Assembly (NCBI RefSeq): GCF_016903815.1
Contig: NZ_CP069973.1
DNA: 64,000 bases
From: Escherichia coli
GTDB lineage: Bacteria > Pseudomonadota > Gammaproteobacteria > Enterobacterales > Enterobacteriaceae
Strand: one strand, 5' to 3'
The position numbers and the translations under genes were made by a program. Under the pieces are notes generated by a model. It made no database searches. It saw nothing but the letters and a program-made list of their open reading frames with translations, and was not told where the DNA came from. Within the stretch, counting starts at the first letter, position 1, and every line of letters starts with the position of its first letter. Positions 6,034-32,994 of the stretch are shown here, one piece after another.

Positions 6034-6492
6034 TTACTTACGGCCCGTAAACGGGCTGCCCGGATAGGGAATCGATAACTGCTCTCCCATTTTATCCTCT
6101 TCAAGCTGGTGCTTTATGTAATCCTGTATCTTCGCCGTGTTCTTACCCACCGTATCGACGTAGTACCCTCTGCACCAGAACTCCCTGTTCCTGTATTTGA
6201 ATTTCAAATCACCAAACTGCTCGTAAAGCATCAGACTGCTTTTCCCTTTCAGATATCCCATAAAGCCGGATACGCTCATTTTGGGCGGGATCTCCACAAG
6301 CATATGGATATGATCTGCACAGCATTCAGCTTCCAGAATCCGTACACTTTTCCACTCACACAGCTTTCTCAAAATACTGCCTATTGCTCTACGCTTCTCT
6401 CTGTAGAACACCTGTCTTCGGTATTTTGGCGCAAAAACTATGTGATATTTACAGTTCCATCGGGTGTGCGCTAAGCTCTTTTCGTTCCCCAT
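6034..6492 (-). CDS. tnpA: IS200-type transposase TnpA (Y1 HUH family, 152 aa)
   Basis: ORF track 6034..6543; start trimmed to ATG 6490-6492 (MGNEKSLAHTRWNCKYHIVFAPKYRR...); HUH motif HIHML and C-terminal YY; near-identical to recalled Salmonella IS200 TnpA. Confidence 0.9.
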   Translation of the reverse strand: MGNEKSLAHTRWNCKYHIVFAPKYRRQVFYREKRRAIGSILRKLCEWKSVRILEAECCADHIHMLVEIPPKMSVSGFMGYLKGKSSLMLYEQFGDLKFKYRNREFWCRGYYVDTVGKNTAKIQDYIKHQLEEDKMGEQLSIPYPGSPFTGRK

Positions 6493-6632
6493 TGGGACCC
6501 CCTTTTGATTTCTTGTTTGACACTTGCAGTTGCCAGACCGCAAGGTGTTTTAACAAATCAAAAGGGGTTTTAATAACTGGCTTAAAGCTGAAAGCTTTCC
6601 GGAACCCCCAGCCTAGCTGGGGGTTTTCTGTG

Positions 6633-11175: not shown

Positions 11176-12228
11176 TCACCCCCATTCCCGCATCCGCTGA
11201 TGCAACGTCAACGACGGCTTCTCGGCAAACAGCTGCTGGTAATCCGTGGCAAATTGCCCCAGATGCCAGAATCCCCACTGCATGGCGGCGTCTTTTACCG
11301 TTGTGCTTTGCGACCACGGGCTTATCAGTTCGCGGCGTACGGCGTTCAGGCGAATGCGTTTCAGCCACGCGTTCGGGCCAATGCCTAAAATAGCGTGAAA
11401 CGCGTTTTGTAGCGTGCGGCGACTGACATGCAGTTGATTACACAAGTCCAGCACCGTCACCGGTTCGGACATGTTTTCCAGCACATATTCACGGGCGCGG
11501 GAAAGTAATCTACGGTAACTCTGATGACTGATGCTTTCCGCCGTCACCATTGGCTGCGCTTCTTCCAGCATCGCCCCCATCGCCATGAGCAAATTATCCC
11601 CCAGCACTTTTCGCACCGCAGGCTGATGCAAATTCTCGGGATTCTCGCAAAACGTCGCCAGCGCCTGTTGGACAAAGCCCCACAGCGCGGCTTTATGCTG
11701 TTCTTTCACTTCCAGCGCCGACTGGCTACGCAGCATATGTAATACCCGATCCGGATTATGCAAAAAGTTAGCCTGACGGGTGATGACATCTTCAGAAAGC
11801 ACTACGCCCAGGATCGTGTAATCGTCCGGCGTACTTAATTCAAACTCGGTTCCACCAGGGCGCGTCGCTATTTCTGCGCTTCCCAGACATTGCGAACCGA
11901 TAAATCCCTGCTCACCGCGCGTCGCCGGAATGCCAAACCAGAACGAGTTCGGCCAGACCAGGCACGACTGACGCAGCGCCAGACCGGTGTATTCACGAAA
12001 AACCTGAATATCATCGAGTAGAATTTCCGTAAATTCACCATGAAACTTGCCCGGATGCAGCTGATCGTAAATCTGCTGCCAGGCGGTAATCGTCAAAGCA
12101 TGTTCATAGACATCCGTTGTCTGTCGTTGATGAACATTATCCACTTCGACCTTCGGCGTGAGCTTCAGGTTTTCGGGTAAGGGTTCATGATAAAGATGGT
12201 GCAAATTGGCTGTACGGGTCTTTTTCAT
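11176..12228 (-). CDS. eutR: AraC-family activator of the eut operon, EutR (350 aa)
   Basis: ORF track 11176..12228; C-terminal AraC-type HTH; last gene of eut cluster. Confidence 0.93.
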
Positions 12229-12273
12229 GATGTTAATGCCGGGTGTTGTAGGACACCCGGCACCTCCGACAGG

Positions 12274-12774
12274 TTAATGGGGCTTGAGACGATAACGACT
12301 ACTGCGTTTACGTAACGTCCCGGCAGAAAAGAGCTGTTCGAGCGCATTTCTGGCTTTTTCCAGCGGCCAGCCAAAGTGGGCAGCCACTTCTCCTGCCGTC
12401 ATTCCCTGACGTACTGATGTTAACAGCGCCAACAACTCGTCAGCAGATTCCACGACGATAACTGGCGCGTCGGGTTCCTTTACGGGTTGCTTCGGCTGGC
12501 GGTTAAAGCCAGTAACCAGCCACTGGGTGTCATCGTCTGGCCGACCGATCTCCTTACGGCTGATGACACGCCCGGTACGCATCGCGGCAGCACAACCTGC
12601 GTCCAGCGCCGCACGACACGCCGCCAGATCGCCTTCCACCACCAGCGTTAGGCGACCAGGGTCAAGCACTTCGTGACTGAGCAGACGAACGTTAGCTGCT
12701 TTGAGCATGGCATCCGCTGCATCTATCGCGGCGACCATGCCGTCCACTTCCAGCAATCCCAGTGCATTGATCAT
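12274..12774 (-). CDS. eutK: Microcompartment shell protein EutK (BMC domain plus C-terminal nucleic-acid-binding-like domain, 166 aa)
   Basis: ORF track 12274..12780 (TTG-initiated call); ATG at 12772-12774 with GGAGG SD gives MINALGLLEVDGMVAA... Confidence 0.9.
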   Translation of the reverse strand: MINALGLLEVDGMVAAIDAADAMLKAANVRLLSHEVLDPGRLTLVVEGDLAACRAALDAGCAAAMRTGRVISRKEIGRPDDDTQWLVTGFNRQPKQPVKEPDAPVIVVESADELLALLTSVRQGMTAGEVAAHFGWPLEKARNALEQLFSAGTLRKRSSRYRLKPH

Positions 12775-12786
12775 CGGCAACCTCCG

Positions 12787-13446
12787 TTACGCACGCTGGA
12801 TTGGATTACGCGCGATTTCCAGCACTGCATCGGTAAAAGCGTTACAGGCTGCTTTACACGCGGCCTGGCTACCGGTTAAAAATGCTGCCGAGTAGTTGGT
12901 TTCAGACGGCGGCGGGACATAGGTCACCAGCTGCACGTCGGCAGATTTCAACGCCGCATCAATGCCGTAGGTCGCTTCCAGCGGCGGTGCCACCAGATAC
13001 GCCATCGGATCGCCAAGCGTGATCCCGGCGGTTGATGAGAGATAAGAACCGGTACGCGAAACTACATGTGCCAGGAAAGCTGTGTTTTCTGCGTCATTAG
13101 CCCACTGGAAAGCCGCGCCATTTTCAATATGCGCAACCATCGCATCCAGACCAGCACGCACTTCCGCCGGGTTTGGCCCACCGAGCATAATCAGCACTTC
13201 ACCGGCAGTCGGTGACGGTCCGTGTGCAGCTCCCGCATACAGCGAGCGGCCATACACCACTTCGACCATCGCCTGCTTGGTCGCTTCGTCAGCCGCAATG
13301 TAGGTGACGTCATCGGAATCAGCAGAAATCAGCCCAAGGCTACGAATATGCGGCGGCAATTTCAGTTCACGCGCAAATTCGGCGTTAACAGAGGCAATCA
13401 CCCGCATGGCGGTGACCGACGGTCGAATCAAATCTAAAGCTGGCAT
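12787..13446 (-). CDS. eutL: Microcompartment shell protein EutL (tandem BMC domain, 219 aa)
   Basis: ORF track 12787..13446. Confidence 0.93.
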
Positions 13447-13455
13447 GATGCCTCC

Positions 13456-14343
13456 TTATCGGGTCATGTTGATGCCGGATGCTTTCTGCTCCAGCATACG
13501 TTTCGCCAAATCCACAATGACGGCTGCGGCTTCAACCGGCGGCGTGCCGCCCTGGTGAATGTTAGAGATACAGGTACGGTCGGCCTCAACGGTGGTTGCC
13601 ATACGCGGCGAGTAAACGGCGTAGCAGGAGAGGCTTTCTGACTGCCCTAATCCCGGGCGTTCCCCCACCAGTAGGATCACTACTTTCGCGCCGAGGATCT
13701 CACCGATCTGATCTTCAATCTTCACGCGACCATAACGAACAAAGAATGGCGTACCGACTTTCAGCCCGGCCTGTTTCAGGCCCGCCATCAGCGGTGGCAG
13801 GATCTCTTCGTAGTTCACGGTGATCGCATCAGTTGACAGGCCATCAGAAATAACGACCTGTACGTCCGGATTAGCAACACACTGTGCTTTCAGCGCTTCA
13901 ACAGCTTCTGCACACAGGCGGCGGCCCATATCCGGACGAGTCAGGTAAAGATTTTTGTCGCTAATTTCAGAGCGGACTTCCAGCAAGCCCTGCGCTTTCA
14001 CCCACTCTTCCGGCACTTCTTTCAGTACGGTATCTTTCGAACGAGAGTGATCGGCCAGGAAACGCAGCAACGCCTGGGTACGCGGACGCGGACCGGCACG
14101 ACCGGTACAAACGCGGGCCACGGTGCTGCGACGCAGTTCTGTTAACACATCCGCACGATGTGGGTTTTCCACACCAATCCACGCTTTTGCTTCCGCAGAG
14201 CCTAAATCCAGCGCGCAGCTTTCCGAGGTCACTGGTGTCGTACAGGTGGTGGTGGCGCACTTTGCTTCTGACGGCGCGGGGGCCGCTTGTCCCATTGACG
14301 CCATCACGCTGCGTACAATTTCTTCAATCTGTTTTTGATCCAT
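13456..14343 (-). CDS. eutC: Ethanolamine ammonia-lyase small subunit EutC (295 aa)
   Basis: ORF track 13456..14343. Confidence 0.93.
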
Positions 14344-14363
14344 GATGTGTTATCTCCGCGTCA

Positions 14364-15725
14364 TCAGAAGAACAGTGACGGATCGCCCGCCCATTTGGTC
14401 AGGCGACCGTTTGCCATAATGCCCATGCTTTCCAGCCAGCGTTCAAACTCCGGTGACGGGCGCAGGTTGAGTAACTGACGCACAGTGGCAGTGTCGTGGA
14501 ATGCTGTGGTCTGATAGTTGAGCATGATGTCATCGCCCAGCGGCATCCCCATGATGTAGTTGCAGCCTGCGGTGGCGAGCAGGATCATGAGGTTTTCGTT
14601 GAGGTTCTGGTCAGCGTCAGCGTGGTTGGTGTAGCAGCAGTCACAGCCCATAGAGATGCCGCTCAGCTTACCCATAAAGTGATCTTCTAAGCCCGCACGG
14701 ATAATCTGGCGGTCGTTGTAGAGATACTCCGGCCCAATAAAGCCGACCACGGTGTTGACGATAAACGGATCGTAATGACGCGCCAGCCCGTAGTTACGCG
14801 CTTCCATCGTCACCTGGTCTGCGCCGAAGTTAGCGCCAGCAGACAGCGCCGAACCTTGTCCGGTTTCGAAGTAGAGGCAGTTTTCCCCGGCGATACGATT
14901 GAACTCTGCGCCCACTGCGCGCGCTTCGTCGAGCATCGCCAGCTCCACGCCAAATTCTTTCAGCCCTTTTTCGCTGCCGCAGATACTCTGGAAAATCAGC
15001 CCGCCTGGTGCGCCACGACGGATCGCTTCAATCTGGGTGGTGACGTGCGCCAGCACGCAGCCCTGAGTTGGGATGTTGAATTTGTCGATCACGCCGTAGA
15101 TGGTGTCCAGCACGCGGCTTAAGTTTTCCACGTCGTCCGTCACCGGGTTGACGCCGATCACCGCATCGCCCACCCCGAAGGAAAGCCCTTCGTAGATTTG
15201 CGCAGCGATACTTTGCACGTCGTCACGGGTGTCATTTGGCTGCAAACGGGCGCTGAAGGTGCCCGGAATACCGATGGTGGTATTGGCCTTTTTGATTACC
15301 GGCATTTTCTTCGCGCCGTAGATCAGGTCCGCGTTGGAGCAAATCTTCGCCACCGCCGCGACCACTTCCGAGGTCAACCCTTTGCGGGTAAAGGCAATGT
15401 CGTCCACGCTGGTTTCATCGCTCAGCACATACTCACGCAGTTCGCTGATGCTCCAGTTTTTAATCTGGTTGTAGGCCGTTTCGTTAACATCGTCCTGAAT
15501 CAGCCGCGTCACACAGTCATCTTCATAGGCAATCACCGGATTATTGCGGATGTCCGCTACGGTCATTTCCGACAACACCTGCTTTGCCGCCACGCGCTCC
15601 TGTGAGCTTGCCGCTGCAACGCCCGCCAGCACATCCCCCGAACGCAGTTCGTTGGCTTTAGCCAGCACCTCTTTTACATCCTTAAACTGATATACATTGC
15701 CGAACAATGTGGTCTTTAGTTTCAT
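14364..15725 (-). CDS. eutB: Ethanolamine ammonia-lyase large subunit EutB (453 aa)
   Basis: ORF track 14364..15725; start 11 nt downstream of eutA stop. Confidence 0.95.
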   Translation of the reverse strand: MKLKTTLFGNVYQFKDVKEVLAKANELRSGDVLAGVAAASSQERVAAKQVLSEMTVADIRNNPVIAYEDDCVTRLIQDDVNETAYNQIKNWSISELREYVLSDETSVDDIAFTRKGLTSEVVAAVAKICSNADLIYGAKKMPVIKKANTTIGIPGTFSARLQPNDTRDDVQSIAAQIYEGLSFGVGDAVIGVNPVTDDVENLSRVLDTIYGVIDKFNIPTQGCVLAHVTTQIEAIRRGAPGGLIFQSICGSEKGLKEFGVELAMLDEARAVGAEFNRIAGENCLYFETGQGSALSAGANFGADQVTMEARNYGLARHYDPFIVNTVVGFIGPEYLYNDRQIIRAGLEDHFMGKLSGISMGCDCCYTNHADADQNLNENLMILLATAGCNYIMGMPLGDDIMLNYQTTAFHDTATVRQLLNLRPSPEFERWLESMGIMANGRLTKWAGDPSLFF

Positions 15726-15736
15726 AAGTCGTTCCC

Positions 15737-17140
15737 TCAGGAAGGAAATGCGAGTGATTTCACCGTCACCGGCACAACCGATCCGCCAAAAAGAGGCGTA
15801 CCAATGTCGATATAGTCCCCCGCGCGGACAATCACTTCGTCAATGACTGCCAACGGGAGTTGTTGTAGCTGTGGGCGCAACAACATGCCCAGAGCTTTAC
15901 CAAAGTCCTGCCCGGCCACCACCAGCAGGGGATGCGGATTCGGAAAACGCGCGACGAAATCGACCAGCGCGTTGATGACCGTCAGTACCGCGGCGTAACG
16001 CACAGGCAGCGAGGCGGGAAGCGCCAGCACGTACGCGTCAGAATTGGGATCAAGATCCAGCTGAATCAGCGCCTGTTGCCAGGCACTCACCAGATCCGTT
16101 TCATCAATTGGGATCGCCACCGGCAAATTGCGCAGCGGCAGTTGTACGCCCTCCAGCCAGATTGTGCTGCCAGAGAGCGAAAGGGTATGTGCACCCGCGC
16201 CAATCACCGTGGCGCGTACGGTTTGCGCCGGAAACTGCACGTTCATCTCACGCAGGCGCGGATGGTCATGCAGCGCCGTTGCCAGAAGCGGGCCAATATC
16301 GGCAAAACAGAACGGGTCGGCGGGCTGGTGGCGATAACATTCGCCCACGCCGCCAGAAAGCGTAATGATTTCGGGCGTAACACCTGCGGGCAGCAAACCG
16401 GTTTGCATCAATGCCTGCGCGAGCGGCGAGAGCGTTCCGTCAATCACTTCGACAATCAGCTCTGCCATCCGCCGGGTAACCTGCACCAGCTGCGCGCCGG
16501 TCAGCGAACGGGCGTCGGTGCCTGCGCCGAAGCACTCATCCACAATCATCTGCCCCGGTTTATGAGCGTAAACCACGCGCCCCTGGCTGTCGGTTTCCAG
16601 CAGGCGACCACCGACGTTGAGGCAGGCAGTGCCGCTGATTTTTCCGGCATCGAACAGGGCGTAGTTCGCGGTGCCACCGCCGATGTCGATATTCAGTACC
16701 CGACACAGCCGTTGTTCAGAAAGGGTTTGCGCCCCGGCACCGTGACCGGCGATCACGGATTCGAGATGCGGCCCGGCGCTGGCGACGACAAAATCGCCCA
16801 GCGACTGGGAGAGCGTCATCACCGCCGGGCGAGCGTTGCGGGTTTTCGCGCTTTCACCGGTGATGATGATGGCACCAGAATCAACGCTTTCCGGCGCAAT
16901 GCCCGCAGCCTGATATTGCTCGAGGATTAAGGTTTTCAGTTCCGCTTCTTTTAAACCACCCTGTTTATCGACAGGGGTAAAGAACACCGGGCTTTGCCAG
17001 CTAATTTCGCGTTTGATGAATTCGTAGCGCGGCACCTGCGACACCGCCGCACGGTTAACCAGCTCCAGGTGGGAGAAGATCACCTGGGTGGTGGTGGTGC
17101 CGATATCGATACCGACGCTCAGTAGCTGGCGAGTGTTCAC
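15737..17140 (-). CDS. eutA: Ethanolamine ammonia-lyase reactivase EutA (467 aa)
   Basis: ORF track 15737..17140; GTG start overlapping eutH stop (GTGA). Confidence 0.93.
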   Translation of the reverse strand: MNTRQLLSVGIDIGTTTTQVIFSHLELVNRAAVSQVPRYEFIKREISWQSPVFFTPVDKQGGLKEAELKTLILEQYQAAGIAPESVDSGAIIITGESAKTRNARPAVMTLSQSLGDFVVASAGPHLESVIAGHGAGAQTLSEQRLCRVLNIDIGGGTANYALFDAGKISGTACLNVGGRLLETDSQGRVVYAHKPGQMIVDECFGAGTDARSLTGAQLVQVTRRMAELIVEVIDGTLSPLAQALMQTGLLPAGVTPEIITLSGGVGECYRHQPADPFCFADIGPLLATALHDHPRLREMNVQFPAQTVRATVIGAGAHTLSLSGSTIWLEGVQLPLRNLPVAIPIDETDLVSAWQQALIQLDLDPNSDAYVLALPASLPVRYAAVLTVINALVDFVARFPNPHPLLVVAGQDFGKALGMLLRPQLQQLPLAVIDEVIVRAGDYIDIGTPLFGGSVVPVTVKSLAFPS

Positions 17141-18363
17141 GATTGTGCCTCCGCTTCGGTTTTAGCCGCGGTCGCGTCTTCTTTTGGCACCAGCATCATC
17201 GCCACGCCAATCGCCGTTACGCCGCCGATCAATTTGCCGACAATCATCGGGAAAATCATGGCGTTCATGTTGGCAGCGGCGAAGCCTAAGTGGTCGCCCA
17301 GGGCGAAAGCAGCGGAAACGGCGAAGGCGCAGTTGATCACTTTGCCGCGGGTATCCATCTGCTTCATCATGCCAAACATCGGGATGTTGTTGGCAAGCGT
17401 TGCCACCATGCCGGCTGCCGCGATGTTGTTCATATTCAGCACTTTACCGACGCTCATCAGCGGTTTTTCAAACCAGCGGGTCAGCAGCAGTACCATCGGG
17501 TACGCCCCTAACAGAACGCAGGAGATAGAACCGATAACTTCAATGGCGCGCATCACTTCACCGGGTTTGTCGCCAGGGGCCATAAAGATAGGATCCAGAC
17601 CGGGAATCAGTTCCCAGCCAAGGAGGAATTTCACTACCGCGGCAGCAAGACCGAGGGTGATCAATGCAACGAGGAATTTGGCGAAGATCTGGAAGCCGTT
17701 GATCATTTTTTCCGGGATGAATTTCAGCCCCAGCGCCACCAGCACCGCAACGATAAGTACCGGGATCATGTTCATCAGGATCAGCGCAAAGGTGAATTCC
17801 ACCGGCTGACCGTTGATCTGCACACCGGAGTACATAGCAACCAGACCACCAGCAATACAGCCAATCGGAATGGTCACAATGCCCGCCAGCACGCCGAGCG
17901 CCAGATAACGACGGTCAGAAGGTTCGATAATGCCGAGCGCCACCGGAATGGAAAACACAATCGTTGGCCCCATCATCGACCCGAGAATTAACCCAGAGTA
18001 TAGCCACGCTGCTACGTCGCCGCCCGCCAGCTCTTTGGCGAGGAAGAAGCCGCCCATATCGCACGCCAGCAGTGTTCCGGCGAACATCGATGGGTTAGCG
18101 CCGAGCATTTCGTAAACCGGGATAATCACCGGTCCGAGTACGTGGGCCAGAACAGGTGCCAGCGCGGTCATACCAACCATCGCCAGGCCCAGTGCGCCCA
18201 TTGCCATAAAGCCTTCTTCGAACTGCCCGCCGGATCCTTCGATACTTTTACCGAACTTACCGAGGAAACGAGCAGAACCGCCGAACTGCGACAGGATCCT
18301 GTCTACGGCAGCTATCAGCATAAAGAACATCATGATGTACATGATGATTTCGTTAATTCCCAT
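17137..18363 (-). CDS. eutH: Ethanolamine permease/facilitator EutH (408 aa, polytopic membrane protein)
   Basis: ORF track 17137..18363; strongly hydrophobic throughout. Confidence 0.93.
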   Translation of the reverse strand: MGINEIIMYIMMFFMLIAAVDRILSQFGGSARFLGKFGKSIEGSGGQFEEGFMAMGALGLAMVGMTALAPVLAHVLGPVIIPVYEMLGANPSMFAGTLLACDMGGFFLAKELAGGDVAAWLYSGLILGSMMGPTIVFSIPVALGIIEPSDRRYLALGVLAGIVTIPIGCIAGGLVAMYSGVQINGQPVEFTFALILMNMIPVLIVAVLVALGLKFIPEKMINGFQIFAKFLVALITLGLAAAVVKFLLGWELIPGLDPIFMAPGDKPGEVMRAIEVIGSISCVLLGAYPMVLLLTRWFEKPLMSVGKVLNMNNIAAAGMVATLANNIPMFGMMKQMDTRGKVINCAFAVSAAFALGDHLGFAAANMNAMIFPMIVGKLIGGVTAIGVAMMLVPKEDATAAKTEAEAQS

Positions 18364-18417
18364 CGCCTTTACTCCCTGTTAGTTGTTATTTATTGCCAAT
18401 GCTGAAAGTGGGTTTTT

Positions 18418-18533
18418 CCCTCACTCTGGAAGCCGAGGGGCCGGGGTGAGGGTAATTGTTTGCACCGGCGCGACTCTGTTCCCCTCACCCTAACCCTCTC
18501 CCCAAAGGGGCGAGGGGACTGTCCGTACACTTT
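18418..18533. repeat. Composite GC-rich palindromic intergenic repeat in the eutG-eutH spacer; core unit 18477-18533 has a second copy at 31870-31927; family name not confidently assigned
   Basis: Core tgttcccctcaccctaaccctctccccaaaggggcgaggggactgtccgt recurs almost identically at 31870-31927; upstream related palindrome ccctcac...gtgaggg at 18418-18452. Confidence 0.75.
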
Positions 18534-19720
18534 TATTGCGCCGCTGCGTACAGGCCGACAATCTGCTCCAGGCTGGCGGTACGCGGGTTGCTGCGCAGAC
18601 AAATATCTTCCAGCGCGGCCTGCGCCCATGCACCGTAATGCGCAGATGTCGCACCAATATCGCCCAGTCGTTTACCAATCCCGACTTCCGCAATCAGCTC
18701 ACTTACCGCGTTAATAGCGTCACGATCGTCGGATTTTTTAGTTCGCAGCGCCCGACCAATCTGACTAAAGCGTTCACGACAAACCATCCGGTTAAATTCC
18801 ATCACCGTTGGCAACAACATGGCGTTCGCCAGACCGTGCGGAATATGCAGCGCCGCCCCCGGCTGATGCGCCATCGCGTGGCATAACCCAAGCCCCGCAC
18901 TGGAAAACGCCATTCCCGCCATGCATGAAGCCAGCAACATGCTCTCGCGCGCGGCAAGGTCATGACCGTAGCCCACCGCTTTCGGCAGTGATTTACCAAT
19001 CATCGCGATTGCGCCAATCGCCAGACTGTCGGTAAACGGTGTGGCGTTCAGCGCGCTGTACGCTTCAATAGCATGGGTTAACGCGTCGATACCGGTCATC
19101 GCCGTGACATGCGACGGCACGCCTTCGGTCAGCGCAGCGTCGAGAATCGCCACATCCGGCATCAGCGAGGCGTGGGCTAACACCTGCTTGCGCCCGCTCA
19201 CCGCGTCGATAATCACCGTTACGTTGGTGGTTTCAGAACCGGTTCCGGCGGTCGTTGGAATGGCAATCAACGGCAGGCGCGGTTGCAGAACGCTGGTTTC
19301 TGACATTTCTGCCAGCGTGCTATCCGGGTTTGTCACCAGCAACGCCACGGCTTTCGCCGCATCCAGCACCGAGCCGCCGCCAAACGCGATCACCCCGTCA
19401 CAACCTGATTCACGCAACTGCGCCACGGCTGCACACACGTCGGTGATGCACGGTTCGCCCACCGGACATGGCCAGAGCGTCATGGCGATACCTTTAACGG
19501 CCAGGCTACGCGTCAGCCCGGCGGTCATCCCCGCCTGATGCAAAAAGCTGTCTGCCATCACGAACAGATGTTTCAGCCCACGCGTTTGCGCTTGCTGCCC
19601 GCAACTGCTCATCGCGCCCGGACCGCAAAGCGTCACCGGTGGAACGCTAAATGTTTTTACCCGTTGCAGATTCAGGGTATCGAACGCCTGAAAGAGCGCG
19701 GTCTGCAATTCATTTTGCAT
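18533..19720 (-). CDS. eutG: Iron-containing alcohol dehydrogenase EutG (395 aa)
   Basis: ORF track 18533..19720. Confidence 0.93.
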   Translation of the reverse strand: MQNELQTALFQAFDTLNLQRVKTFSVPPVTLCGPGAMSSCGQQAQTRGLKHLFVMADSFLHQAGMTAGLTRSLAVKGIAMTLWPCPVGEPCITDVCAAVAQLRESGCDGVIAFGGGSVLDAAKAVALLVTNPDSTLAEMSETSVLQPRLPLIAIPTTAGTGSETTNVTVIIDAVSGRKQVLAHASLMPDVAILDAALTEGVPSHVTAMTGIDALTHAIEAYSALNATPFTDSLAIGAIAMIGKSLPKAVGYGHDLAARESMLLASCMAGMAFSSAGLGLCHAMAHQPGAALHIPHGLANAMLLPTVMEFNRMVCRERFSQIGRALRTKKSDDRDAINAVSELIAEVGIGKRLGDIGATSAHYGAWAQAALEDICLRSNPRTASLEQIVGLYAAAQ

Positions 19721-20546
19721 AGATCCCCTCCGCTTTCTCTCGCCCGCTACTGGCGATCGCCAGCGGGGTCATAAACAAACTGTGCTGCGGTAAATGCACC
19801 TGTAACGCCGGGAATTGTTTGCAAAACAGTTCCGCAACGCCCGGTTGCATACAGGAGCCGCCCGCCAGCCATAAATCAGTAATGCCCTGCCCTTCAATAT
19901 GCCGGGCGACAATGTCCGCCATTTTTTCGTACACCGGTTTCACCGCGGGCCAAATCTCTTCACCGTGACCGCGCTTGTACTGCTCCGCCTCTTCCAGCGA
20001 AATACGGCGATTTCCGGCGAGAGTCAGAGAGATATGATGTCCGCCGGTGGCTTCATCTGCCGAGTAAGTCACCTTGCCCTTTTTCACGATGGCAATGCCG
20101 GTGGTGCCGCCGCCGATATCCACTACACCGGCGTTGTCCAGTTGCAGCAGATCCGCGACTGCGGTTGGCTCATCCAGCACATGGCTCACTTCCAGCCCGG
20201 CAGACTCCAGCACGTTGATGGAAATACGCGGGTCCGTACCTGGAGGAAAAGAGGTCGCCGCATGGCTAAAACGGCGACCGAATTGCTGCTCGAGGGTGTC
20301 GAGATGGCGACGAACAATGGTGACCGCACCGAAGAAATCCCAGACGATGCCGTCGCGGACCACATCAGCCCAGTCGAGGCATACCGCCACCGGCTGACCG
20401 TCGCGGTCAACAACCATCGACACCACATCGCAGGTGCCCAGATCCACCCCCAGCCACAGCGGAGATTCCGTCGCGGCAGGCGTCTGGTTACACAGCGTTG
20501 CTGCTATGTGCAGACGTGGGGTGAGCCATTGTTCGTCGTGCGCCAT
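19710..20546 (-). CDS. eutJ: Hsp70/actin-fold chaperone-like protein EutJ (278 aa)
   Basis: ORF track 19710..20546; overlaps eutG start by 11 nt. Confidence 0.93.
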   Translation of the reverse strand: MAHDEQWLTPRLHIAATLCNQTPAATESPLWLGVDLGTCDVVSMVVDRDGQPVAVCLDWADVVRDGIVWDFFGAVTIVRRHLDTLEQQFGRRFSHAATSFPPGTDPRISINVLESAGLEVSHVLDEPTAVADLLQLDNAGVVDIGGGTTGIAIVKKGKVTYSADEATGGHHISLTLAGNRRISLEEAEQYKRGHGEEIWPAVKPVYEKMADIVARHIEGQGITDLWLAGGSCMQPGVAELFCKQFPALQVHLPQHSLFMTPLAIASSGREKAEGIYAK

Positions 20547-20556
20547 CTGTTACTCC

Positions 20557-21960
20557 TTAAACAATGCGAAACGCATCGACTAATACACAGCGACGCAGAC
20601 GGACAAACGTCCGCGCGCTGGTTACCCCTTCACCGGTTGGCGTGGTGATGGTCATGGTGGTCCAGCCTTCCCCGCCCAGCCCCAGCCCGGCAATACACGG
20701 TCCGTTCTTAACGAAAATGCTGGTATCAATGGCATTCGCCATCTGGTTCATGTTTTCGATGTTGCGCGAGTGCATTGCCGCCGTGTGATGGCAACCGCCT
20801 TCCAGTTTCACCGCCAGCGCAATGGCATCCGCCACGTTGGCGACGCGCACGACGGGCAGCACCGGCATCATCAGTTCAGTCACAGCAAACGGATGTTCTG
20901 CGGTGGTTTCTACAAACAGCAGTCGCGTTTGTTCCGGAACTTTAAGGCCGATTGCCGCCGCGATTTTCGCCGCATCGCGACCAACCCAGTCACGGCTGAC
21001 GGTGCCTTTTCCGCGCTCGTCGATATTTTTCAGCAACACCGGTTGCAGCTGCTGCGCCTGCTCTGCGGTCAGTTTCACCGCGTGCTGGCCTTCCATCAGA
21101 CGCATCAGTTCATCGGCTACGCTATCCACAACAATCAGTACCTTTTCGTCGGCACAAATGATGTTGTTATCGAAAGACGCGCCTTTGACGATGGACTGAG
21201 CAGCACGGGCGAGGTCAGCGGTTTCATCCACCACTACCGGCGGGTTGCCAGCGCCTGCGGCAATCAGACGTTTATTGGTGTGTTTACGCGCCGCTTCTAC
21301 TACCGCTTCGCCGCCGGTCACCACCAGCAGGCCGATGCCCGGAAACTTGAACAAACGTTGAGCGGTTTCGATATCCGGATTTGCCACAGTAACCAGTAAG
21401 TTTTCCGGCCCGCCTGCGGCAACAATCGCCTGGTTGAGCAGCGTAATCGCCCGCTGGGAGACTTTTTTCGCCGCCGGATGCGGGGCAAAAATGACGCTGT
21501 TGCCCGCGGCAATCAGGCTTATGGCGTTATTAATTACGGTTGCCGCCGGGTTGGTGGACGGAGTTACCGAAGCCACCACGCCCCAGGGCGCGTTTTCAAT
21601 TAAAGTCAGGCCGTTGTCGCCAGTCAGCACCTGCGGAGAGAGGCACTCAACGCCCGGTGTGCCGCGCGCCTGAGCAACGTTTTTGGCAAATTTATCTTCG
21701 ACGCGGCCCATGCCGGTTTCACTGACGGCAAGCTCCGCTAAATCTCTGGCGTGTTTTTCGCCTGCTTCACGAATGGCAGCAATGGCTAACTGGCGCATTG
21801 CCACGCTCTTTAACCCTTGCTGGGCAATTTTGGCTGCCGCAACGGCGTCATCCAGGGACGCGAAAACGCCCATCTCATGAACGGCGGCGGGCGGCGTATC
21901 ACTGCTTTGCATTTTCAGCAGTACCGCTTTCACCACCTGTTCAATATCCTGTTGATTCAT
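20557..21960 (-). CDS. eutE: CoA-acylating acetaldehyde dehydrogenase EutE (467 aa)
   Basis: ORF track 20557..21960. Confidence 0.93.
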   Translation of the reverse strand: MNQQDIEQVVKAVLLKMQSSDTPPAAVHEMGVFASLDDAVAAAKIAQQGLKSVAMRQLAIAAIREAGEKHARDLAELAVSETGMGRVEDKFAKNVAQARGTPGVECLSPQVLTGDNGLTLIENAPWGVVASVTPSTNPAATVINNAISLIAAGNSVIFAPHPAAKKVSQRAITLLNQAIVAAGGPENLLVTVANPDIETAQRLFKFPGIGLLVVTGGEAVVEAARKHTNKRLIAAGAGNPPVVVDETADLARAAQSIVKGASFDNNIICADEKVLIVVDSVADELMRLMEGQHAVKLTAEQAQQLQPVLLKNIDERGKGTVSRDWVGRDAAKIAAAIGLKVPEQTRLLFVETTAEHPFAVTELMMPVLPVVRVANVADAIALAVKLEGGCHHTAAMHSRNIENMNQMANAIDTSIFVKNGPCIAGLGLGGEGWTTMTITTPTGEGVTSARTFVRLRRCVLVDAFRIV

Positions 21961-21971
21961 GATGTTCTGCC

Positions 21972-22259
21972 TTATTTGTGGAAAATTACCTGACCGCCAG
22001 ACACCACCTCATCGACAATGCCAATCACGCACAGATCGACCGGTGACGTTTCGCTTTTATGCGCCTGGCGGGCGGAACTGCCACTCACCAGCAACACCCA
22101 CTCCCCGGTTCCCGCGCCAATATTGTCGATGGCGACGGCGCATTGCCCGTCAGGATTACCTTGTGGATCAATCATTTCCACCATCAGCAATTTGTCATGC
22201 GCCAGTCCGTGATGGCGTACGGTACAAACAATTTGTCCAGTGACGACTGCCAGTTTCAT
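21972..22259 (-). CDS. eutN: Microcompartment vertex protein EutN (95 aa)
   Basis: ORF track 21972..22259; GGAGG SD upstream. Confidence 0.93.
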   Translation of the reverse strand: MKLAVVTGQIVCTVRHHGLAHDKLLMVEMIDPQGNPDGQCAVAIDNIGAGTGEWVLLVSGSSARQAHKSETSPVDLCVIGIVDEVVSGGQVIFHK

Positions 22260-22365
22260 ACCCGCCTCCGTGGCGTATTTCAGGTAAAAGCTCCCCCTAC
22301 CCTCCGCGGAAGGTAAACTGAAAAAGGAGAGAGCGTGACGCCCGAATCGACGTCACACAGGGTGA

Positions 22366-22659
22366 TTACAGGTTGCTGCTATCGCCTTTCAGGCCGATCG
22401 GGAAGACTTCTTCCAGGTCGCCGTGCGGACGCGGGATAACGTGTACAGATACCAGCTCGCCGATACGCTGTGCCGCGGCGGCACCTGCGTCGGTCGCGGC
22501 TTTACAGGCTGCAACATCACCACGAACCATGGCAGTACACAGGCCGCCGCCAATCTGCTTAACACCAACCAGCTTGACGCGCGCAGCTTTCACCATCGCG
22601 TCAGAAGCCTCAATCAGTGCAACCAGGCCCCGGGTTTCGATCATTCCTAATGCTTCCAT
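22366..22659 (-). CDS. eutM: Major microcompartment shell protein EutM (BMC domain, 97 aa)
   Basis: ORF track 22366..22701; start trimmed to ATG 22657-22659 ([26 protein letters not shown]...) with GAGGAAA SD. Confidence 0.92.
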
Positions 22660-22697
22660 TGTGCTTTCCTCTTTATCAGGGTCCAGAACGGGACCGT

Positions 22698-23714
22698 TCA
22701 TTCAACCAGTGTTTGTAAACTGCTTTCGCGGTTCACTTCTGTCTGACGCGGCACAGCTGCCACCAGCGCCAGCTCGATAATTTCCTGCACGCTACAACCA
22801 CGAGAGAGATCGTGCATCGGCGCGGCAAGCCCTTGTATCAATGGCCCGACGGCACGATATCCGCCGAGTCGTTGTGCGATTTTGTAGCCAATATTTCCGG
22901 CTTCCAGCGACGGAAAAACCATCACATTGGCCTTGCCTTGTAGCGGGCTGGCAGGCGCTTTTTGCGCCGCCACTTCCGGCACGAAGGCGGCGTCAAACTG
23001 CAACTCGCCATCCACCACCAGCTTCGGTGCGCGCTCACGGACGATTTCTGTCGCCTGCTGGACGTTGGCAACGCAGGGGTGACGGGCACTACCGTTGCTG
23101 GAAAACGACAGCATCGCCACGCGCGGTTCTTCTCCGGTGATGGCGCGCCAGGTTTCGGCGCTGGCAAGCGCGATATCCGCCAGTTGCGCCGCCGTCGGCT
23201 GTGGCACTACGCTGCAATCGGCAAAGCCCAATGCGGGGCCACTGTACTGTGGCAGCATCAGGAAAATGGAGGAGAGCGTTTTACAGCCTGGCTGTAAGCC
23301 AATAATGCGTAATCCGGCACGCAGCACATTCGCCGTGGAAGAGAGATTGCCCGCGATACAGACATCCGCTGTCCCGGCGCTGACCATTGCGGCAGCGAAC
23401 ATCAGCGGATCGGTGAGTTTTTCCAACGCATCCGGCGGCGTTTTTTCGCCCGCACGGGCCAGCCAGCGGAGAGCAAATTCTTCCCGCATTGCGAGGTTGC
23501 CATGCGGATCTATCACCTGTAGCCCGTCCATCGCCACGCCGTGACTGAGCGCAAACTGACGAAGTTCAAACGGATTGGCGACCAGAATGGGCGTTGCCAG
23601 ACCTTGTTGATGTAAATATTGCGCGGCTTTCAGCACACGTTGATCTAACGCATCCGGAAAAACCACTCTGGCGGGCGCTCGCAACGCCAGTTCACGACAA
23701 CGTTCAATAATCAT
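22698..23714 (-). CDS. eutD: Phosphotransacetylase EutD (338 aa)
   Basis: ORF track 22698..23714. Confidence 0.93.
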
Positions 23715-24514
23715 TGCGTTTCCCCCAGTCGTTGTTGGATCTGCTTCACCGTTAGCGGCTGCTTCGTTACGCTCAGGATCATCATCACGTAGACCGTGCT
23801 CGAAAGGCGGTTCAGCGCCTGCAAGATGTCCGGGCGTAATACTTCAAAACTGCGGGTTATAAACACCTGCGCCGCTACGGTTTCGGTTTCCCGCACTTTG
23901 GTGCGTAGCAGATTGAGTAACGCCGCATCGCGCCCGTGGCTGGCTTCCGGCACCAGATGATCGTGACCAAGATAGCGCAGCGGCTGATGAGAAAGCCGAT
24001 GCAGATCTTCGTCAGAAAGCCCGACAATCGCTTGGCAGGCCAGCGGTTCCCCCAGCGCATCGGCGCGCATAATGTTGCCAAGACGCGAGCGGATGTCCGC
24101 CAGCCACGGCTGCCACGGTTCCGCCAGTTCAATTTGCAGCCACACTGCCAGCGCAATGGTGCTGTCGAGAACCGCGCGAAAACCCAGACGCGGATCGCTT
24201 TTGGCGACCATTTTTTCCGCCGACAGGTGAGTCAGCGTGTCCGGCTTTTTCGCCACCGGCTGGCGGCACAGTTCGCAGCACGCCTGCCGATGTTCATCAC
24301 TACTGGTCAGCCCGTGAACGGGCTGCGGCTGCTGCTGTTCATCGTCAACAAACAGGCGGCCCTGCTCGTCAATAAACTTGATGCGCAGATGGCGGCTTTC
24401 CAGCAACTCCCGGGCAGAGGGCGTCAGGCGACTGTCCGCAGGGAGATGGATCTCTGCGCCTTCGCTAAGCGTATGATTCGCTCTTAGCCATGCTTCGGTG
24501 ATGAAATCTTTCAT
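23711..24514 (-). CDS. eutT: Cob(I)alamin adenosyltransferase EutT (267 aa)
   Basis: ORF track 23711..24514; 4-nt overlaps with both neighbours. Confidence 0.92.
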
Positions 24515-25212
24515 AGGGATTGCCAGTTAGCCGGCCAGGCGACATACAGGAATTTCACGCTGGATGTCGTACCAAATTCGATGCTGGAGCCTTTCGGGAT
24601 AAACATTACGTCGCCTGCTTTGGCGATCATGGTTTCGCCTTCGTGGCGAACATGCAGCTCCCCTTCCAGCACCATGTCGATTTCGTCGTAGTTCAGGGTC
24701 CACGGGAAGAATGCGTTCTCCCACTGCATAAAACCGGCGGCCATGCTGCTGCCGTCGTCTCCGGTCACAAGATCAGTCAAGCCCACGCAATGCGGCTCTG
24801 CGCCGTCGAAACGACCAAACTTGACGCTGCTGCCATCAATAACTTTGATGCCGCCTTTGCCGGTCACCGATTTGAAACTCGGCTGCATTGCACCCTGCTC
24901 CAGTGACTGTTTTTCCTTCATCACTTTTTCCATCAGCTGCGCGACCAGGCTTTCGGTAAACTGGCCTTCCGGTAGCTGGGCGATGATGGTTTCGCGGATA
25001 CGCTGGCTTTCGGTTTTATCGGCTGGCACGCAGGCGGGAACGGACGCCGTTACCGGGGTCGATTCATCACATTCAGTGATGGTAAAACCCAGTAGATCTG
25101 CCACTTCACGGGCTTCCGGGGTAATAATGCTGGCGCGCAGAACCACGGACATTGCCTGTTCGCCGCGCGCGTGTGCTTCACGAATATCATTCGCTGTGAT
25201 GAGTTTTTTCAC
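24511..25212 (-). CDS. eutQ: Cupin-fold protein EutQ (233 aa)
   Basis: ORF track 24511..25212. Confidence 0.92.
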   Translation of the reverse strand: MKKLITANDIREAHARGEQAMSVVLRASIITPEAREVADLLGFTITECDESTPVTASVPACVPADKTESQRIRETIIAQLPEGQFTESLVAQLMEKVMKEKQSLEQGAMQPSFKSVTGKGGIKVIDGSSVKFGRFDGAEPHCVGLTDLVTGDDGSSMAAGFMQWENAFFPWTLNYDEIDMVLEGELHVRHEGETMIAKAGDVMFIPKGSSIEFGTTSSVKFLYVAWPANWQSL

Positions 25213-25666
25213 CTGCTTCCTCCTGTTTGGTGAGAGATGCCAGATAATCCACCAGTTGCTGCACGCTTTGCGGGTCGTGGCTGTTTAGCTCGAAAATCGG
25301 CTCTTCGAAGCCCGTCTCAAGCAATAACTTTCGCGTTGCGGCGACGTCAGCATCTGGCATGTCCGTTTTACTGATGACGGCGATTTGCCGTTTGCTGACG
25401 CCAATATCCAGCAACCCGGCAGGCAACCGACTTTCCGGGTCATTCGCGCCGTGGACATAGATCAGCATGTCCACATCCTGTAGCGTGGTAATTAAGGCGT
25501 GATACCAGCGGGGATGGCTAAAATATTCACCCGGCGTATCAATATCACCCTTATCATTAAATTCTACGGCCTGCGTTTTTCTGGCGAGGGTATAATCTCC
25601 CTGCAACGCATTAAATAACGTTGTTTTTCCTGCCCCGACGGTACCCACAAACGCAATTCGTTTCAT
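25187..25666 (-). CDS. eutP: P-loop NTPase EutP (159 aa)
   Basis: ORF track 25187..25666; Walker A GTVGAGKTT; 26-nt overlap with eutQ. Confidence 0.92.
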   Translation of the reverse strand: MKRIAFVGTVGAGKTTLFNALQGDYTLARKTQAVEFNDKGDIDTPGEYFSHPRWYHALITTLQDVDMLIYVHGANDPESRLPAGLLDIGVSKRQIAVISKTDMPDADVAATRKLLLETGFEEPIFELNSHDPQSVQQLVDYLASLTKQEEAGEKTHHSE

Positions 25667-25678
25667 GAATGCCTCGTA

Positions 25679-26014
25679 TTAACTTTTGGTCATTTCACAA
25701 AGCGTATAATTTAATAAACGCCCTAAACCGCTGACGGTTTGTGATAACGCTTCTTCTACTGCACCCACCGAGCCATAAATCACCAACGCGCCGCTAAAAC
25801 GGTCGAGAAAACCGATATGCACATCGGCGGCTTTTAGTGCTAAATCACCGGCGATCATCGCCGTTTCGCCGGGAGTTAGCGTCATAATGCCGATTGCGCC
25901 CGCATCAGGAACGCCGATTTTCTTCGCCAGTTCCTCGCCGGGATGCGCGATGAGATGCGCCAGTGTGACCTGTTTACCGGGCACAAATTCCTGAATGATG
26001 CGTTCTTTATCCAT
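25679..26014 (-). CDS. eutS: Microcompartment shell protein EutS (111 aa), first gene of the eut operon
   Basis: ORF track 25679..26086; start trimmed to ATG 26012-26014 ([15 protein letters not shown]...). Confidence 0.88.
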
Positions 26015-29844: not shown

Positions 29845-31848
29845 ATGTCCCGAAAAGACCTTGCCAATGCGATTCGCGCACTCAGTATGGATGCGGTACA
29901 AAAAGCCAATTCTGGTCATCCCGGCGCGCCGATGGGCATGGCTGATATTGCCGAAGTGCTGTGGAACGATTTTCTTAAACATAACCCCACCGACCCAACC
30001 TGGTATGATCGCGACCGCTTTATTCTTTCCAACGGCCACGCGTCGATGCTGCTCTACAGTTTGCTACATCTGACCGGTTACGACCTGCCGCTGGAAGAGC
30101 TGAAGAACTTCCGTCAGTTGCATTCAAAAACCCCAGGTCACCCGGAGATTGGCTATACGCCAGGTGTTGAAACCACCACCGGTCCACTTGGACAAGGTTT
30201 GGCGAACGCCGTCGGACTGGCGATAGCAGCGCGTACACTGGCGGCGCAGTTTAACCAGCCGGATCATGAAATTGTCGATCACTTCACCTATGTGTTTATG
30301 GGCGACGGTTGCCTGATGGAAGGTATTTCCCACGAAGTCTGTTCGCTGGCGGGCACGCTGGGACTGGGCAAGCTGATTGGTTTTTACGATCACAACGGTA
30401 TTTCCATCGACGGTGAAACCGAAGGCTGGTTTACCGACGATACAGCAAAACGTTTTGAAGCCTATCACTGGCATGTGATCCATGAAATCGACGGTCACGA
30501 TCCGCAGGCGGTGAAGAAAGCGATCCTTGAAGCGCAAAGCGTGAAAGATAAGCCGTCGCTGATTATCTGCCGCACAGTAATTGGCTTTGGTTCGCCGAAT
30601 AAAGCAGGTAAGGAAGAGGCGCACGGCGCACCGCTGGGGGAAGAAGAAGTGGCGCTGGCACGGCAAAAACTGGGCTGGCACCATCCGCCATTTGAGATCC
30701 CTAAAGAGATTTATCACGCCTGGGATGCCCGCGAAAAAGGCGAAAAAGCGCAGCAGAGCTGGAATGAGAAGTTTGCCGCCTATAAAAAGGCCCATCCGCA
30801 ACTGGCAGAAGAGTTTACCCGTCGGATGAGCGGCGGTTTGCCGAAGGACTGGGAGAAAACGACTCAGAAATATATCAATGAATTACAGGCAAATCCGGCG
30901 AAAATCGCTACCCGTAAGGCTTCGCAAAATACGCTTAACGCTTACGGGCCGATGCTGCCTGAGTTGCTCGGCGGTTCGGCGGATCTGGCTCCCAGCAACC
31001 TGACCATCTGGAAAGGTTCTGTTTCGCTGAAGGAAGATCCGGCGGGCAACTACATTCACTACGGGGTGCGTGAATTTGGCATGACCGCTATCGCCAACGG
31101 CATCGCGCACCACGGCGGCTTTGTGCCGTATACCGCGACGTTCCTGATGTTTGTTGAATACGCCCGTAACGCCGCGCGGATGGCGGCACTAATGAAAGCG
31201 CGGCAGATTATGGTTTATACCCACGACTCAATTGGTCTGGGCGAAGATGGTCCTACGCACCAGGCTGTTGAGCAACTGGCCAGTCTGCGCTTAACGCCAA
31301 ATTTCAGCACCTGGCGACCGTGCGATCAGGTGGAAGCAGCGGTGGGCTGGAAGCTGGCCGTTGAGCGCCACAACGGACCGACGGCACTGATCCTCTCCAG
31401 GCAGAATCTGGCCCAGGTGGAACGTACGCCGGATCAGGTTAAAGAGATTGCTCGTGGCGGTTATGTACTGAAAGACAGCGGCGGTAAGCCAGATATTATT
31501 TTGATTGCCACCGGTTCAGAGATGGAAATCACCCTGCAAGCGGCAGAGAAATTAGCGGGAGAAGGTCGCAATGTACGCGTAGTTTCCCTGCCCTCGACCG
31601 ATATTTTCGACGCCCAGGATGAGGAATATCGCGAGTCGGTGTTGCCTTCTAACGTTGCGGCTCGCGTGGCGGTGGAAGCAGGCATCGCCGATTACTGGTA
31701 CAAATATGTTGGTCTGAAAGGGGCAATTGTCGGGATGACCGGCTATGGGGAATCTGCTCCGGCAGATAAGCTGTTCCCGTTCTTTGGCTTTACCGCCGAG
31801 AATATTGTGGCAAAAGCGCATAAGGTGCTGGGAGTGAAAGGTGCCTGA
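29845..31848 (+). CDS. tktB: Transketolase 2, TktB (667 aa)
   Basis: ORF track 29782..31848; start trimmed to ATG 29845 ([27 protein letters not shown]...). Confidence 0.93.
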
Positions 31849-31869
31849 TGGTGATCGCCGGATGCTGTA

Positions 31870-31927
31870 TGTTCCCCTCACCCTAACCCTCTCCCCAGAG
31901 GGGCGAGGGGACAGTCCGTGCGCTTTT
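31870..31927. repeat. Second copy of the GC-rich palindromic repeat (same orientation as 18477-18533), 22 nt downstream of tktB stop
   Basis: tgttcccctcaccctaaccctctccccagaggggcgaggggacagtccgtgcgcttttt; differs from the first copy at only a few positions. Confidence 0.75.
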
Positions 31928-31950
31928 TAGGGGCGCATCTGGGATTTTGT

Positions 31951-32994
31951 TTAACGGGTGATCCACAACGTGGGCCAGGCGTCTGGCCCATGCCAGTTAT
32001 CGCAGGTGGGTTCTGCGGCATAACGCACCAGGCGAAAACGCTGACCGTCAAAGCGCCAGCGCGCCTGAATGCCACAATCGCTTAATCCGCGCCCTTTTGC
32101 TAAGGTCACCAGTTCACGCGATTTTTCATCGAATGTTGCGTTCATCAGTTCCAGTTCATTCGTCTCCTGACCGCTGTTGAACGGCAAACGTAACCGAACC
32201 GGGCGCGAGGCCAGTGGCTTTTTACGCGACACAATCCAAGCCAAATCAATGGTGTTATAGGCCCCTGCCTCACAGCTAATCATCATCAGCGCTTTATCAT
32301 CGGTCAGCGCAGTGACATTCACCTCACGACGTAACGGATCAAGCGAGCAGCGCAGACCATTCATCCGCCAGTTTCCATAATCCAGCAAATCGTTGCGTTC
32401 TTCGAGTGAGAGTGGCGTCGGCGTTGGGTTAACCACCGCGACCTCTTTCAGCGCAGGCGCGGGCGGTACGCTGAGCGGCGGTTCATCCCCTTTCTTTATC
32501 CACGCGGTTTCACTGCCAACGCGCTTTTGCTGAGCATCTATAAACAACAACGCCGCTTTTAAGCCACTCAGAGAAATGGTCTGATTGCCGTCGCGTAAGG
32601 TGATCGCCTTCCCTTCCTGAATCATCTGCAAAAACGCGGTGATGGTTGCCGTATCATCGGTTACTAATAACCATGGTGAAATCCGCCACTTGTCACCACT
32701 TAACGCCAACGGCTCGCCATCTAACAGCAGCCGTGGCGCTATCTCCCCTTCAGACGCATCCGGCGACTTCAACCCGCCGCGCTCAATACGTAAAACGGCA
32801 TCCGTATGCGCCCCGGCGCTGCGGCTCAGGGTCATCACCAGTCCGTTATGATCGCCCGTATTACGCGCCACGCAGAAGTTTTGGTTATTACAGGTGACCT
32901 GCCAGTCGGAAAACGCCCGTTGCGCTGGTGCCGCCCACACCAAAGACGTCGGCAACAAAGCGAAAAAAAAGAGAAGGAAAATGCGATAGCGCAT
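31951..32994 (-). CDS. ypfG: DUF1176-family periplasmic protein YpfG (347 aa)
   Basis: ORF track 31951..32994; N-terminal signal peptide. Confidence 0.88.
   Translation of the reverse strand: MRYRIFLLFFFALLPTSLVWAAPAQRAFSDWQVTCNNQNFCVARNTGDHNGLVMTLSRSAGAHTDAVLRIERGGLKSPDASEGEIAPRLLLDGEPLALSGDKWRISPWLLVTDDTATITAFLQMIQEGKAITLRDGNQTISLSGLKAALLFIDAQQKRVGSETAWIKKGDEPPLSVPPAPALKEVAVVNPTPTPLSLEERNDLLDYGNWRMNGLRCSLDPLRREVNVTALTDDKALMMISCEAGAYNTIDLAWIVSRKKPLASRPVRLRLPFNSGQETNELELMNATFDEKSRELVTLAKGRGLSDCGIQARWRFDGQRFRLVRYAAEPTCDNWHGPDAWPTLWITR

Follow-up and report, generated by a model that had tools for sequence, protein, structure and literature searches.

BoxC elements, later renamed PIT (potential intrastrand triplex) elements and after that TMECO triplex motifs, form a known family of non-coding interspersed repeats in E. 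coli and related Proteobacteria, and their description is reportedly connected with the names of Bergler in 1992, of Bachellier and of Hoyne and Maher in 2000 and 2002. We know of no cognate transposase or other mobility enzyme for BoxC and, to our knowledge, neither a link to RAYT/TnpA_REP nor an IHF site or a gyrase site has been assigned to it. The catalogue for K-12 comprises 23 TMECO, and the published pattern of the motif is 5'-CCCTCNCCC N3-6 GGGNGAGGG N3 GGGNGAGGG[G/T/C/-]-3' (Holder et al., 2015; PMC4666352). Five inverted pairs, each composed of one type-A unit (TTA loop) and one type-B unit (CCG loop), were described in K-12 (PMC4666352), and an independent survey gave E. coli BoxC as a 56-bp element with 32 reported copies (PMC2267715). 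CD and NMR showed an intrastrand purine-motif triplex for DNA oligonucleotides of the consensus in vitro, with a Tm of about 74 °C for the oligonucleotide of type A mm, and the NMR data excluded a G-quadruplex (PMC4666352). The same paper further reports that an in vivo DMS footprint gave no triplex protection, that purine-motif triplexes cannot form in RNA, and that PIT elements block DNA polymerase in vitro. The elements were found to possess no promoter or terminator activity and to leave RNA polymerase unaffected in vivo, they show no bias in gene class, distance or operon position, and an association with a transposase has not been reported (PMC4666352). Variation between strains was described as much greater at TMECO loci than in the intergenic regions used as controls, and the changes were sorted by Holder et al. 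into the categories region missing, intergenic change and palindrome effect (PMC4666352).

The window analysed here is the whole stretch of 64,000 nucleotides of E. coli DNA, in which the eutSPQTDMNEJGHABCLKR operon is intact and located on the minus strand. The operon (11176-26014) runs uninterrupted and eutA adjoins eutB; in K-12 the CPZ-55 prophage lies between these two genes. Strain 7/2 (NZ_CP023820.1) showed 100% identity in every compared segment, and over the first 50 kb its annotated genes have the same coordinates. The first-pass annotation of the window had described the eutG-eutH spacer as almost entirely repeat, with nested inverted repeats in a core that recurs in the same orientation at a second place, and all of this was borne out: the 169-bp spacer is nearly all repeat, the inverted repeats are present (Table 1), and the direct repeat between 18477-18534 and 31870-31927 spans 58 nt, of which 54/58 are identical (93%), in the same orientation. 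The window contains exactly two copies of the central 22-mer CCCTCACCCTAACCCTCTCCCC, with 0 copies expected from 100 dinucleotide shuffles. Arms of the upstream palindrome and of the core can also pair with each other (inverted repeats I2 and I3), and both copies lie between annotated CDSs.

Table 1. Coordinates of the features of the eutG-eutH spacer, of the second BoxC locus and of the classical REPs in the window (dot: no strand assigned).
Feature	Position	Strand	Remark
eutH	17137-18363	-	
eutG-eutH spacer	18364-18532		169 bp
eutH start codon (18363-18361) and 31-nt leader (18364-18394) with Shine-Dalgarno GGGAG	18361-18394	-	Common to all sampled E. coli alleles
Left copy of the direct repeat TTTATTG(C) (7-8 nt) that borders the variable cassette	18389-18396	.	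Same 7-mer bounds the BIME cassettes
Left junction CAATGCTGAAAGTGGGTTTTT	18397-18417	.	Ends in the T-run that opens K-12 BoxC pairs
Inverted repeat I1, upstream palindrome (arms)	18415-18429 / 18441-18455		
Perfect centre of I1, CCCTCAC/GTGAGGG	18418-18424 / 18446-18452		
Type-B unit of BoxC/TMECO, degenerate, with CCG as second loop (the upstream palindrome)	18418-18452	+	Fuzzy pattern match, alignment to K-12 type-B arms
Linker joining the two inverted units, TAATTGTTTGCACCGGCGCGACTC	18453-18476	.	Roughly 25 nt; collinear with the ygfF-gcvP, alx-sstT and fepB-entC linkers of K-12
Full 58-nt BoxC unit	18477-18534	-	Final 2 nt overlap the eutG stop codon
Nested inverted repeats of the core (arms)	18480-18490 / 18508-18518		91% complementarity
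36-nt triplex motif CCCTCGCCCCTTTGGGGAGAGGGTTAGGGTGAGGGG, type A with one mismatch	18481-18516	-	Exact consensus match
Right copy of the direct repeat, TTTATTGC	18532-18539	.	Includes the eutG stop codon (18533-18535)
eutG	18533-19720	-	TAA stop at 18535-18533
Solo BoxC unit, tktB-ypfG spacer (convergent genes)	31870-31927	-	Exact consensus match
36-nt motif of the tktB-ypfG unit, CCCTCGCCCCTCTGGGGAGAGGGTTAGGGTGAGGGG	31874-31909	-	
Classical REP palindromes, ypfN-ypfH (two REPs)	43188-43250		
Classical REP palindrome, purC-bamC	47860-47910		

Judged by its sequence, the eutG-eutH repeat is a BoxC element. The published pattern, used as a regular expression, matches the minus strand exactly at 18482-18516 and at 31875-31909. 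The motif of the eut copy is letter-for-letter that of the K-12 TMECO nos. 7, 11 and 15 ('type A mm'), and the motif of the tktB-ypfG copy is that of nos. 9 (fabI/envM), 16, 19 and 22 (Table 1 of PMC4666352). The K-12 copies were recovered from NC_000913.3 at their published positions. No. 9, beside fabI (envM), stands at what we take to be the place of the first BoxC description. The 58-nt unit of the eut spacer shares 55/58 positions with the K-12 ygfF-gcvP copy, and among the K-12 copies compared the identity was 51-55/58 in two gap-free alignments and 42-44/58 in the other two.

The whole spacer is a single composite in which a linker joins a type-B unit on the plus strand to an intact minus-strand type-A unit, and by its sequence it is the published inverted A+B pair. 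The palindrome that the first-pass annotation had listed as a feature upstream of the core is real; it is not a separate feature, and corresponds to a degenerate, inverted type-B copy. Relative to the BoxC pattern, this stretch (18418-18452, plus strand) has 3 substitutions and 1 deletion; it is decayed to the plain hairpin CCCTCAC...GTGAGGG, separated by a 28-nt gap from the type-A motif at 18481-18516. Three K-12 pairs, those at ygfF-gcvP, alx-sstT and fepB-entC, align collinearly with the composite, linker and T-run ends included, giving 97-104 identities per 131-135 alignment columns (72-79%). For the type-B arm together with the linker, the closest paralogues have an identity of about 80%, and the paralogue search identified no recent donor locus for the eut composite.

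A genome-wide search for the family and its copy number, as suggested by the first-pass annotation, showed that BoxC is interspersed, being detectable at a median of 15 and at up to 29 places in a genome, and that it is present in 5425/5426 complete E. coli genomes; recurrence of the element elsewhere was thereby confirmed. Neither of the two loci of the window carries BoxC in K-12, as Table 1 of PMC4666352 lists no TMECO between 1.35 and 3.05 Mb. The supplement of that paper gave no match for eutG, eutH, tktB or ypfG, although eutG-eutH may still be one of the 63 loci that its authors catalogued. The gathering scan of the window with Rfam 15 found no family for the spacer, and a permissive scan of 18300-18600 returned chance-level matches only (E >= 0.23, scores far under gathering). 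The sole result of the gathering scan in the window is an STnc490 match at 6502-6625 (minus strand, 146 bits), which lies directly upstream of an IS200C-family tnpA (6034-6492, minus strand) between pbp4b and yfeX and is presumably the IS200 5' leader RNA. Two mechanical ORFs cross the spacer (18390-18629, minus; 18456-18638, plus); a reading as small ORFs was set aside, the repeat being intergenic in both orientations genome-wide.

The BoxC spacer is carried by 303/5426 complete E. coli genomes (5.6%), among them NRG 857C, and is absent at this site in about 94%. All other sampled alleles carry REP/BIME arrays at the same site, with 1-5 tandem 100-bp units and spacer lengths of 99, 116, 216, 316 or 516 bp. 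When alleles were counted in 60 evenly spaced rows of the E. coli matches, the two-unit BIME (K-12 type) was found in 27/60 and the one-unit BIME in 17/60, followed by the three-unit (5/60) and five-unit BIME (4/60), the O157-type with its 99-bp spacer (3/60) and the BoxC allele (3/60), while one row (1/60) was a partial match and not scorable. By strain group, K-12 strains carry two BIME units, B strains carry three, and O157/O55 carry the truncated 99-bp version. A synthetic empty-site query gave no match in these rows (0/60 evenly spaced E. coli rows), nor was an empty site found in Salmonella, Klebsiella and E. albertii, all of which are REP-occupied. The hypothetical empty site would leave a eutG-eutH spacer of 26 nt.

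The alleles differ between two fixed borders. The 31 nt next to eutH are identical in the BoxC allele, in all BIME alleles, in E. albertii and in E. whittamii, the eutG stop codon is invariant too, and the sequence between leader and stop is swapped among alleles. This variable cassette is bounded by the TTTATTG(C) direct repeat in BoxC and BIME alleles alike (7 nt shared, 8 in BoxC), and by inference the repeat could be regarded as target-site-duplication-like. In Klebsiella an analogous ATAAATG duplication was seen. By eye, the start of the left junction, ATTGCCAATGCTGA, taken together with ATTGC of the leader, resembles the REP half-site ATTGCCGGATGCTGA. Strain SWHEFF_68 contains an identical tract of 318 bp (18227-18544) that includes the whole BoxC spacer, while about 580 bp of eutH and eutG on its two sides differ by 46 SNPs. 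Since the tract is identical amid SNP-bearing flanks, the BoxC allele was probably passed between lineages by homologous recombination, and the tract looks like a short recombination tract that brought the allele into a divergent background.

Outside E. coli, the eutG-eutH spacer holds one BIME unit in E. whittamii, two in E. albertii, and 3 and about 4.5 units in two further Escherichia species. Salmonella enterica has a REP pair of a genus-specific REP sequence, and a Klebsiella contig has REPs of the Klebsiella type. As REP-type elements were found in each of these relatives, the BIME is the ancestral state and the BoxC pair a derived replacement. The eutG-eutH junction is either an ancient landing pad for such repeats or a place at which a structured element is maintained.

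The second locus of the window shows a similar distribution. The BoxC allele of the tktB-ypfG spacer is a minority allele (830/5426 genomes), K-12-like strains, IHE3034 and others have one to several REPs at the identical position, and in the window a REP half-site, GCCGGATGCTG, still abuts the BoxC (31835-31965). A general replacement of REP by BoxC was considered and fails at the three K-12 BoxC loci that were tested. There, the alternatives are a large indel with its breakpoint about 40 bp from BoxC (fabI-ycjD), a missing ygfF region (ygfF-gcvP), and either the collapse of the pair into one hairpin or 400 bp of unrelated inserted sequence (alx-sstT). In EH01-18-04-A the alx-sstT locus has lost 75 bp internally relative to the K-12 A+B pair, resulting in a single perfect hairpin, TCTCCCTCTCCCCAAAAGGGGCGAGGGGA, and this exemplifies the 'palindrome effect' described by Holder et al. 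At fabI-ycjD and ygfF-gcvP the homology to K-12 stops about 15-45 bp from the BoxC unit in roughly 40% of E. coli genomes, with ycjD replaced in CFT073/O157 and ygfF absent in O157; as the homology ends so close to the units, BoxC copies often mark indel breakpoints. The variation at these three loci agrees with the categories of Holder et al. (PMC4666352). Against a background of roughly 10% of 3' intergenic regions that bear a REP, replacement of REP by BoxC at two of five loci is suggestive only.

On the eut mRNA, the sense strand bears the G-rich version of the motif. The first-pass annotation had placed the repeat within the minus-strand eut transcript and expected a stable fold there, in agreement with the prediction of -68.5 kcal/mol (z -2.2) for a 191-nt mRNA-sense stretch spanning the spacer. 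The predicted energies were -23.7 kcal/mol for the 63-nt core RNA and -16.4 kcal/mol (z -2.45) for the hairpin of the type-B remnant, and 138 nt of the one-unit BIME allele, at -48.3 kcal/mol (z -2.55), are structured to a comparable degree; all these z-scores, about -1.9 to -2.5 against composition-matched shuffles, are modest, and the folding tools model Watson-Crick and GU pairs only. The hairpin of the BoxC allele starts 14 nt past the eutG UAA and the REP of the BIME allele 2 nt past it. According to PMC12306157, which cites Liang et al. (2015), REPs less than 16 nt from a stop codon lower the translation of the gene upstream, and the BoxC hairpin is at the edge of this range.

Taken together, the spacer is very probably a composite BoxC, a derived allele that replaced a REP/BIME and was spread by recombination, and it would serve as a structured spacer, on a par with the BIME before it, and be a hot spot for local instability, rather than serve as a dedicated regulator of eut. 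With regard to function, we infer that the BoxC in eut is an interspersed repeat that ranges from functionless to mildly functional. At the DNA level, the G-rich strand, which is the non-template strand of the inducible eut operon, may fold into a hairpin or intrastrand triplex when single-stranded, and the folded strand could cause polymerase stalling, slippage and replacement of the site; such events would explain the hypervariability. At the RNA level, the eut mRNA would carry very stable GC-rich stem-loops that start 14 nt past the eutG stop, and these should be plain stem-loops because the purine-motif triplex cannot form in RNA. If they act at all, the stem-loops may act as a generic structured spacer that would hold back 3'-to-5' exonucleases and possibly slow terminating ribosomes, which is the role attributed to the REP/BIME at this site in other strains and genera. 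The presence of structured repeats in the spacer across three genera could mean that structure is selected and that the element is more than neutral, and an allele-specific effect on the EutG/EutH ratio is possible.

Several other explanations were weighed against this one. If the spacer were a divergent, mutated variant of REP/BIME, of the same family as in the other strains, its position at the site of their BIMEs would be expected, and the left junction ATTGCCAATGCTGA is faintly like a REP half, as is the linker AATTG..GCACCG.CGC.ACT like the BIME inter-unit linker. However, a pattern scan for the REP consensus of the GCCGGATGCGGCG ... CGCCTTATCCGGC type found no match in 18364-18532, the orthologous spacers of other strains do have such matches, the repeat matches another, well-defined family exactly, and BoxC and BIME alleles are unalignable between the bounding TTTATTG repeats. 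The notion of a REP variant is refuted by this comparison and deserves virtually no credence; the first-pass annotation was right that the repeat is not a classical REP and that classical REPs are present near 43188 and 47860. That the spacer holds an intrinsic terminator, an attenuator or an internal promoter is extremely unlikely and has been largely refuted already. The hairpins are GC-rich and the family unit ends in a plus-strand T-run, but in the eut sense they are followed by AACAGAG and AAAAACCC (AAAAACC), with no U-tract. The scan gave no promoter-like or terminator-like site in the spacer and two terminator-like matches that both lie inside eutH, the promoter scan found no sigma-70-like promoter within the spacer, and the published PIT assays were negative (PMC4666352). 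An RNA switch between a G-quadruplex and a hairpin, in which GGGGAGAGGGUUAGGGUGAGGGG and the C-rich arm would be competitors for pairing, with an effect on translation or decay, is very unlikely. A canonical four-tract G4 motif, GGGGAGAGGGTTAGGGTGAGGGG, is located at 18494-18516 on the minus strand, directly 3' of the complementary C-rich arm, and the G4 regular expression matches the eut sense strand only. RNA G4s are reportedly depleted and unfolded in E. coli. The G4 potential of the DNA oligonucleotide was noted by the authors of PMC4666352, whose NMR data on that DNA oligonucleotide nevertheless gave a triplex and not a G4, and the adjacent, perfectly placed C-rich arm is predicted to give a hairpin of about -24 kcal/mol that should win.

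It was also considered that the spacer might be a dedicated cis-acting RNA element of eut, which would provide differential stability or processing of eutS-eutG versus eutH-eutR or throttle the termination of eutG translation. The stable predicted fold in the sense RNA is consistent with this, as are the structured repeats at the site in every genus examined, the eutH Shine-Dalgarno leader, which is kept intact, and the hairpin 14 nt past the eutG UAA, which falls just within the range of less than 16 nt (PMC12306157, citing Liang et al., 2015). Against it stand the about 94% of E. coli in which BoxC is missing at the site, a family that occurs in both orientations on either side of unrelated genes and shows bias neither to operons nor to functions (PMC4666352), and PIT elements that according to the same paper have no terminator or promoter activity and leave RNA polymerase unaffected; the fold has neither covariation nor Rfam support. 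A dedicated cis-acting element is therefore unlikely, and equally unlikely is its corollary that the lineage has a distinct EutG/EutH stoichiometry. The roles in mRNA processing or stability and in differential expression of the downstream genes that had been proposed in the first-pass annotation find no support in existing data, given that the PIT elements described in PMC4666352 lack promoter and terminator activity and operon bias. Of the observations that would have spoken against such a role, absence at this site was found in about 94% of E. coli, whereas the element does recur elsewhere; a generic structured-spacer role may still apply, because the genomes that lack BoxC carry a BIME there. 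A further, doubtful proposal is that BoxC actively replaces REP cassettes, with REP hairpins or flanks serving as landing or template-switch sites, or that a stable hairpin after eutG is selected in Escherichia, Salmonella and Klebsiella alike, the sequence family being interchangeable. This draws on the fact that both BoxC copies of the window stand at REP sites of other strains and that the eut cassette shares its direct repeat with the BIME. If true, either version would be the first mechanistic or functional handle on BoxC.

The reading of the spacer as a derived BoxC allele has little consequence for the biology of eut, since this is a catalogued family for which no regulatory function has come to light in three decades of work. 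The BoxC family has already been published, as have its paired architecture, its hypervariability and the fact that regulatory activity could not be detected. Small new descriptive points are that the eutG-eutH junction is a BIME copy-number polymorphism, that REP-type repeats occupy it in at least three genera, and that 5.6% of E. coli carry a BoxC pair there instead. The junction thereby provides, at a single site within an operon, a clean series of natural alleles, a BoxC pair versus BIMEs of 1, 2, 3 or 5 units, which can be used for testing the effects of intra-operon repeats on mRNA stability or on translation of the upstream gene. The two BoxC-for-REP substitutions bear on how these orphan repeats spread.

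Among known systems, MITE-like repeats such as ERIC/IRU and RSA resemble the eut element in being short (~130 bp), non-coding, interspersed composites with inverted arms, and the 7-8 nt direct repeat that flanks the eut BoxC cassette adds to the likeness. In contrast to MITEs, BoxC has no defined terminal inverted repeats, and the flanking direct repeat is no evidence of BoxC transposition because the BIME alleles have the same repeat. REP/BIME elements occupy the same site in other strains and genera, and they share with BoxC the extragenic, GC-rich and operon-internal character, a stable RNA hairpin just after the stop codon and a variable copy number. They belong, however, to an unrelated sequence family: BoxC does not contain the GCCGGATG...CATCCGGC consensus, and its symmetry is three-segment (C-G-G), whereas that of REP/BIME is a simple palindrome. 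Both BoxC loci of the window stand in for REP/BIME, an association that was not found in the parts of PMC4666352 that were consulted. The closest system is BoxC as published, from which the element of the window differs in its degenerate type-B arm at 18418-18452 and with which it has in common that it is extragenic and multicopy, that its locus varies between strains, and that it is built of paired A and B units with a conserved linker and T-run ends.
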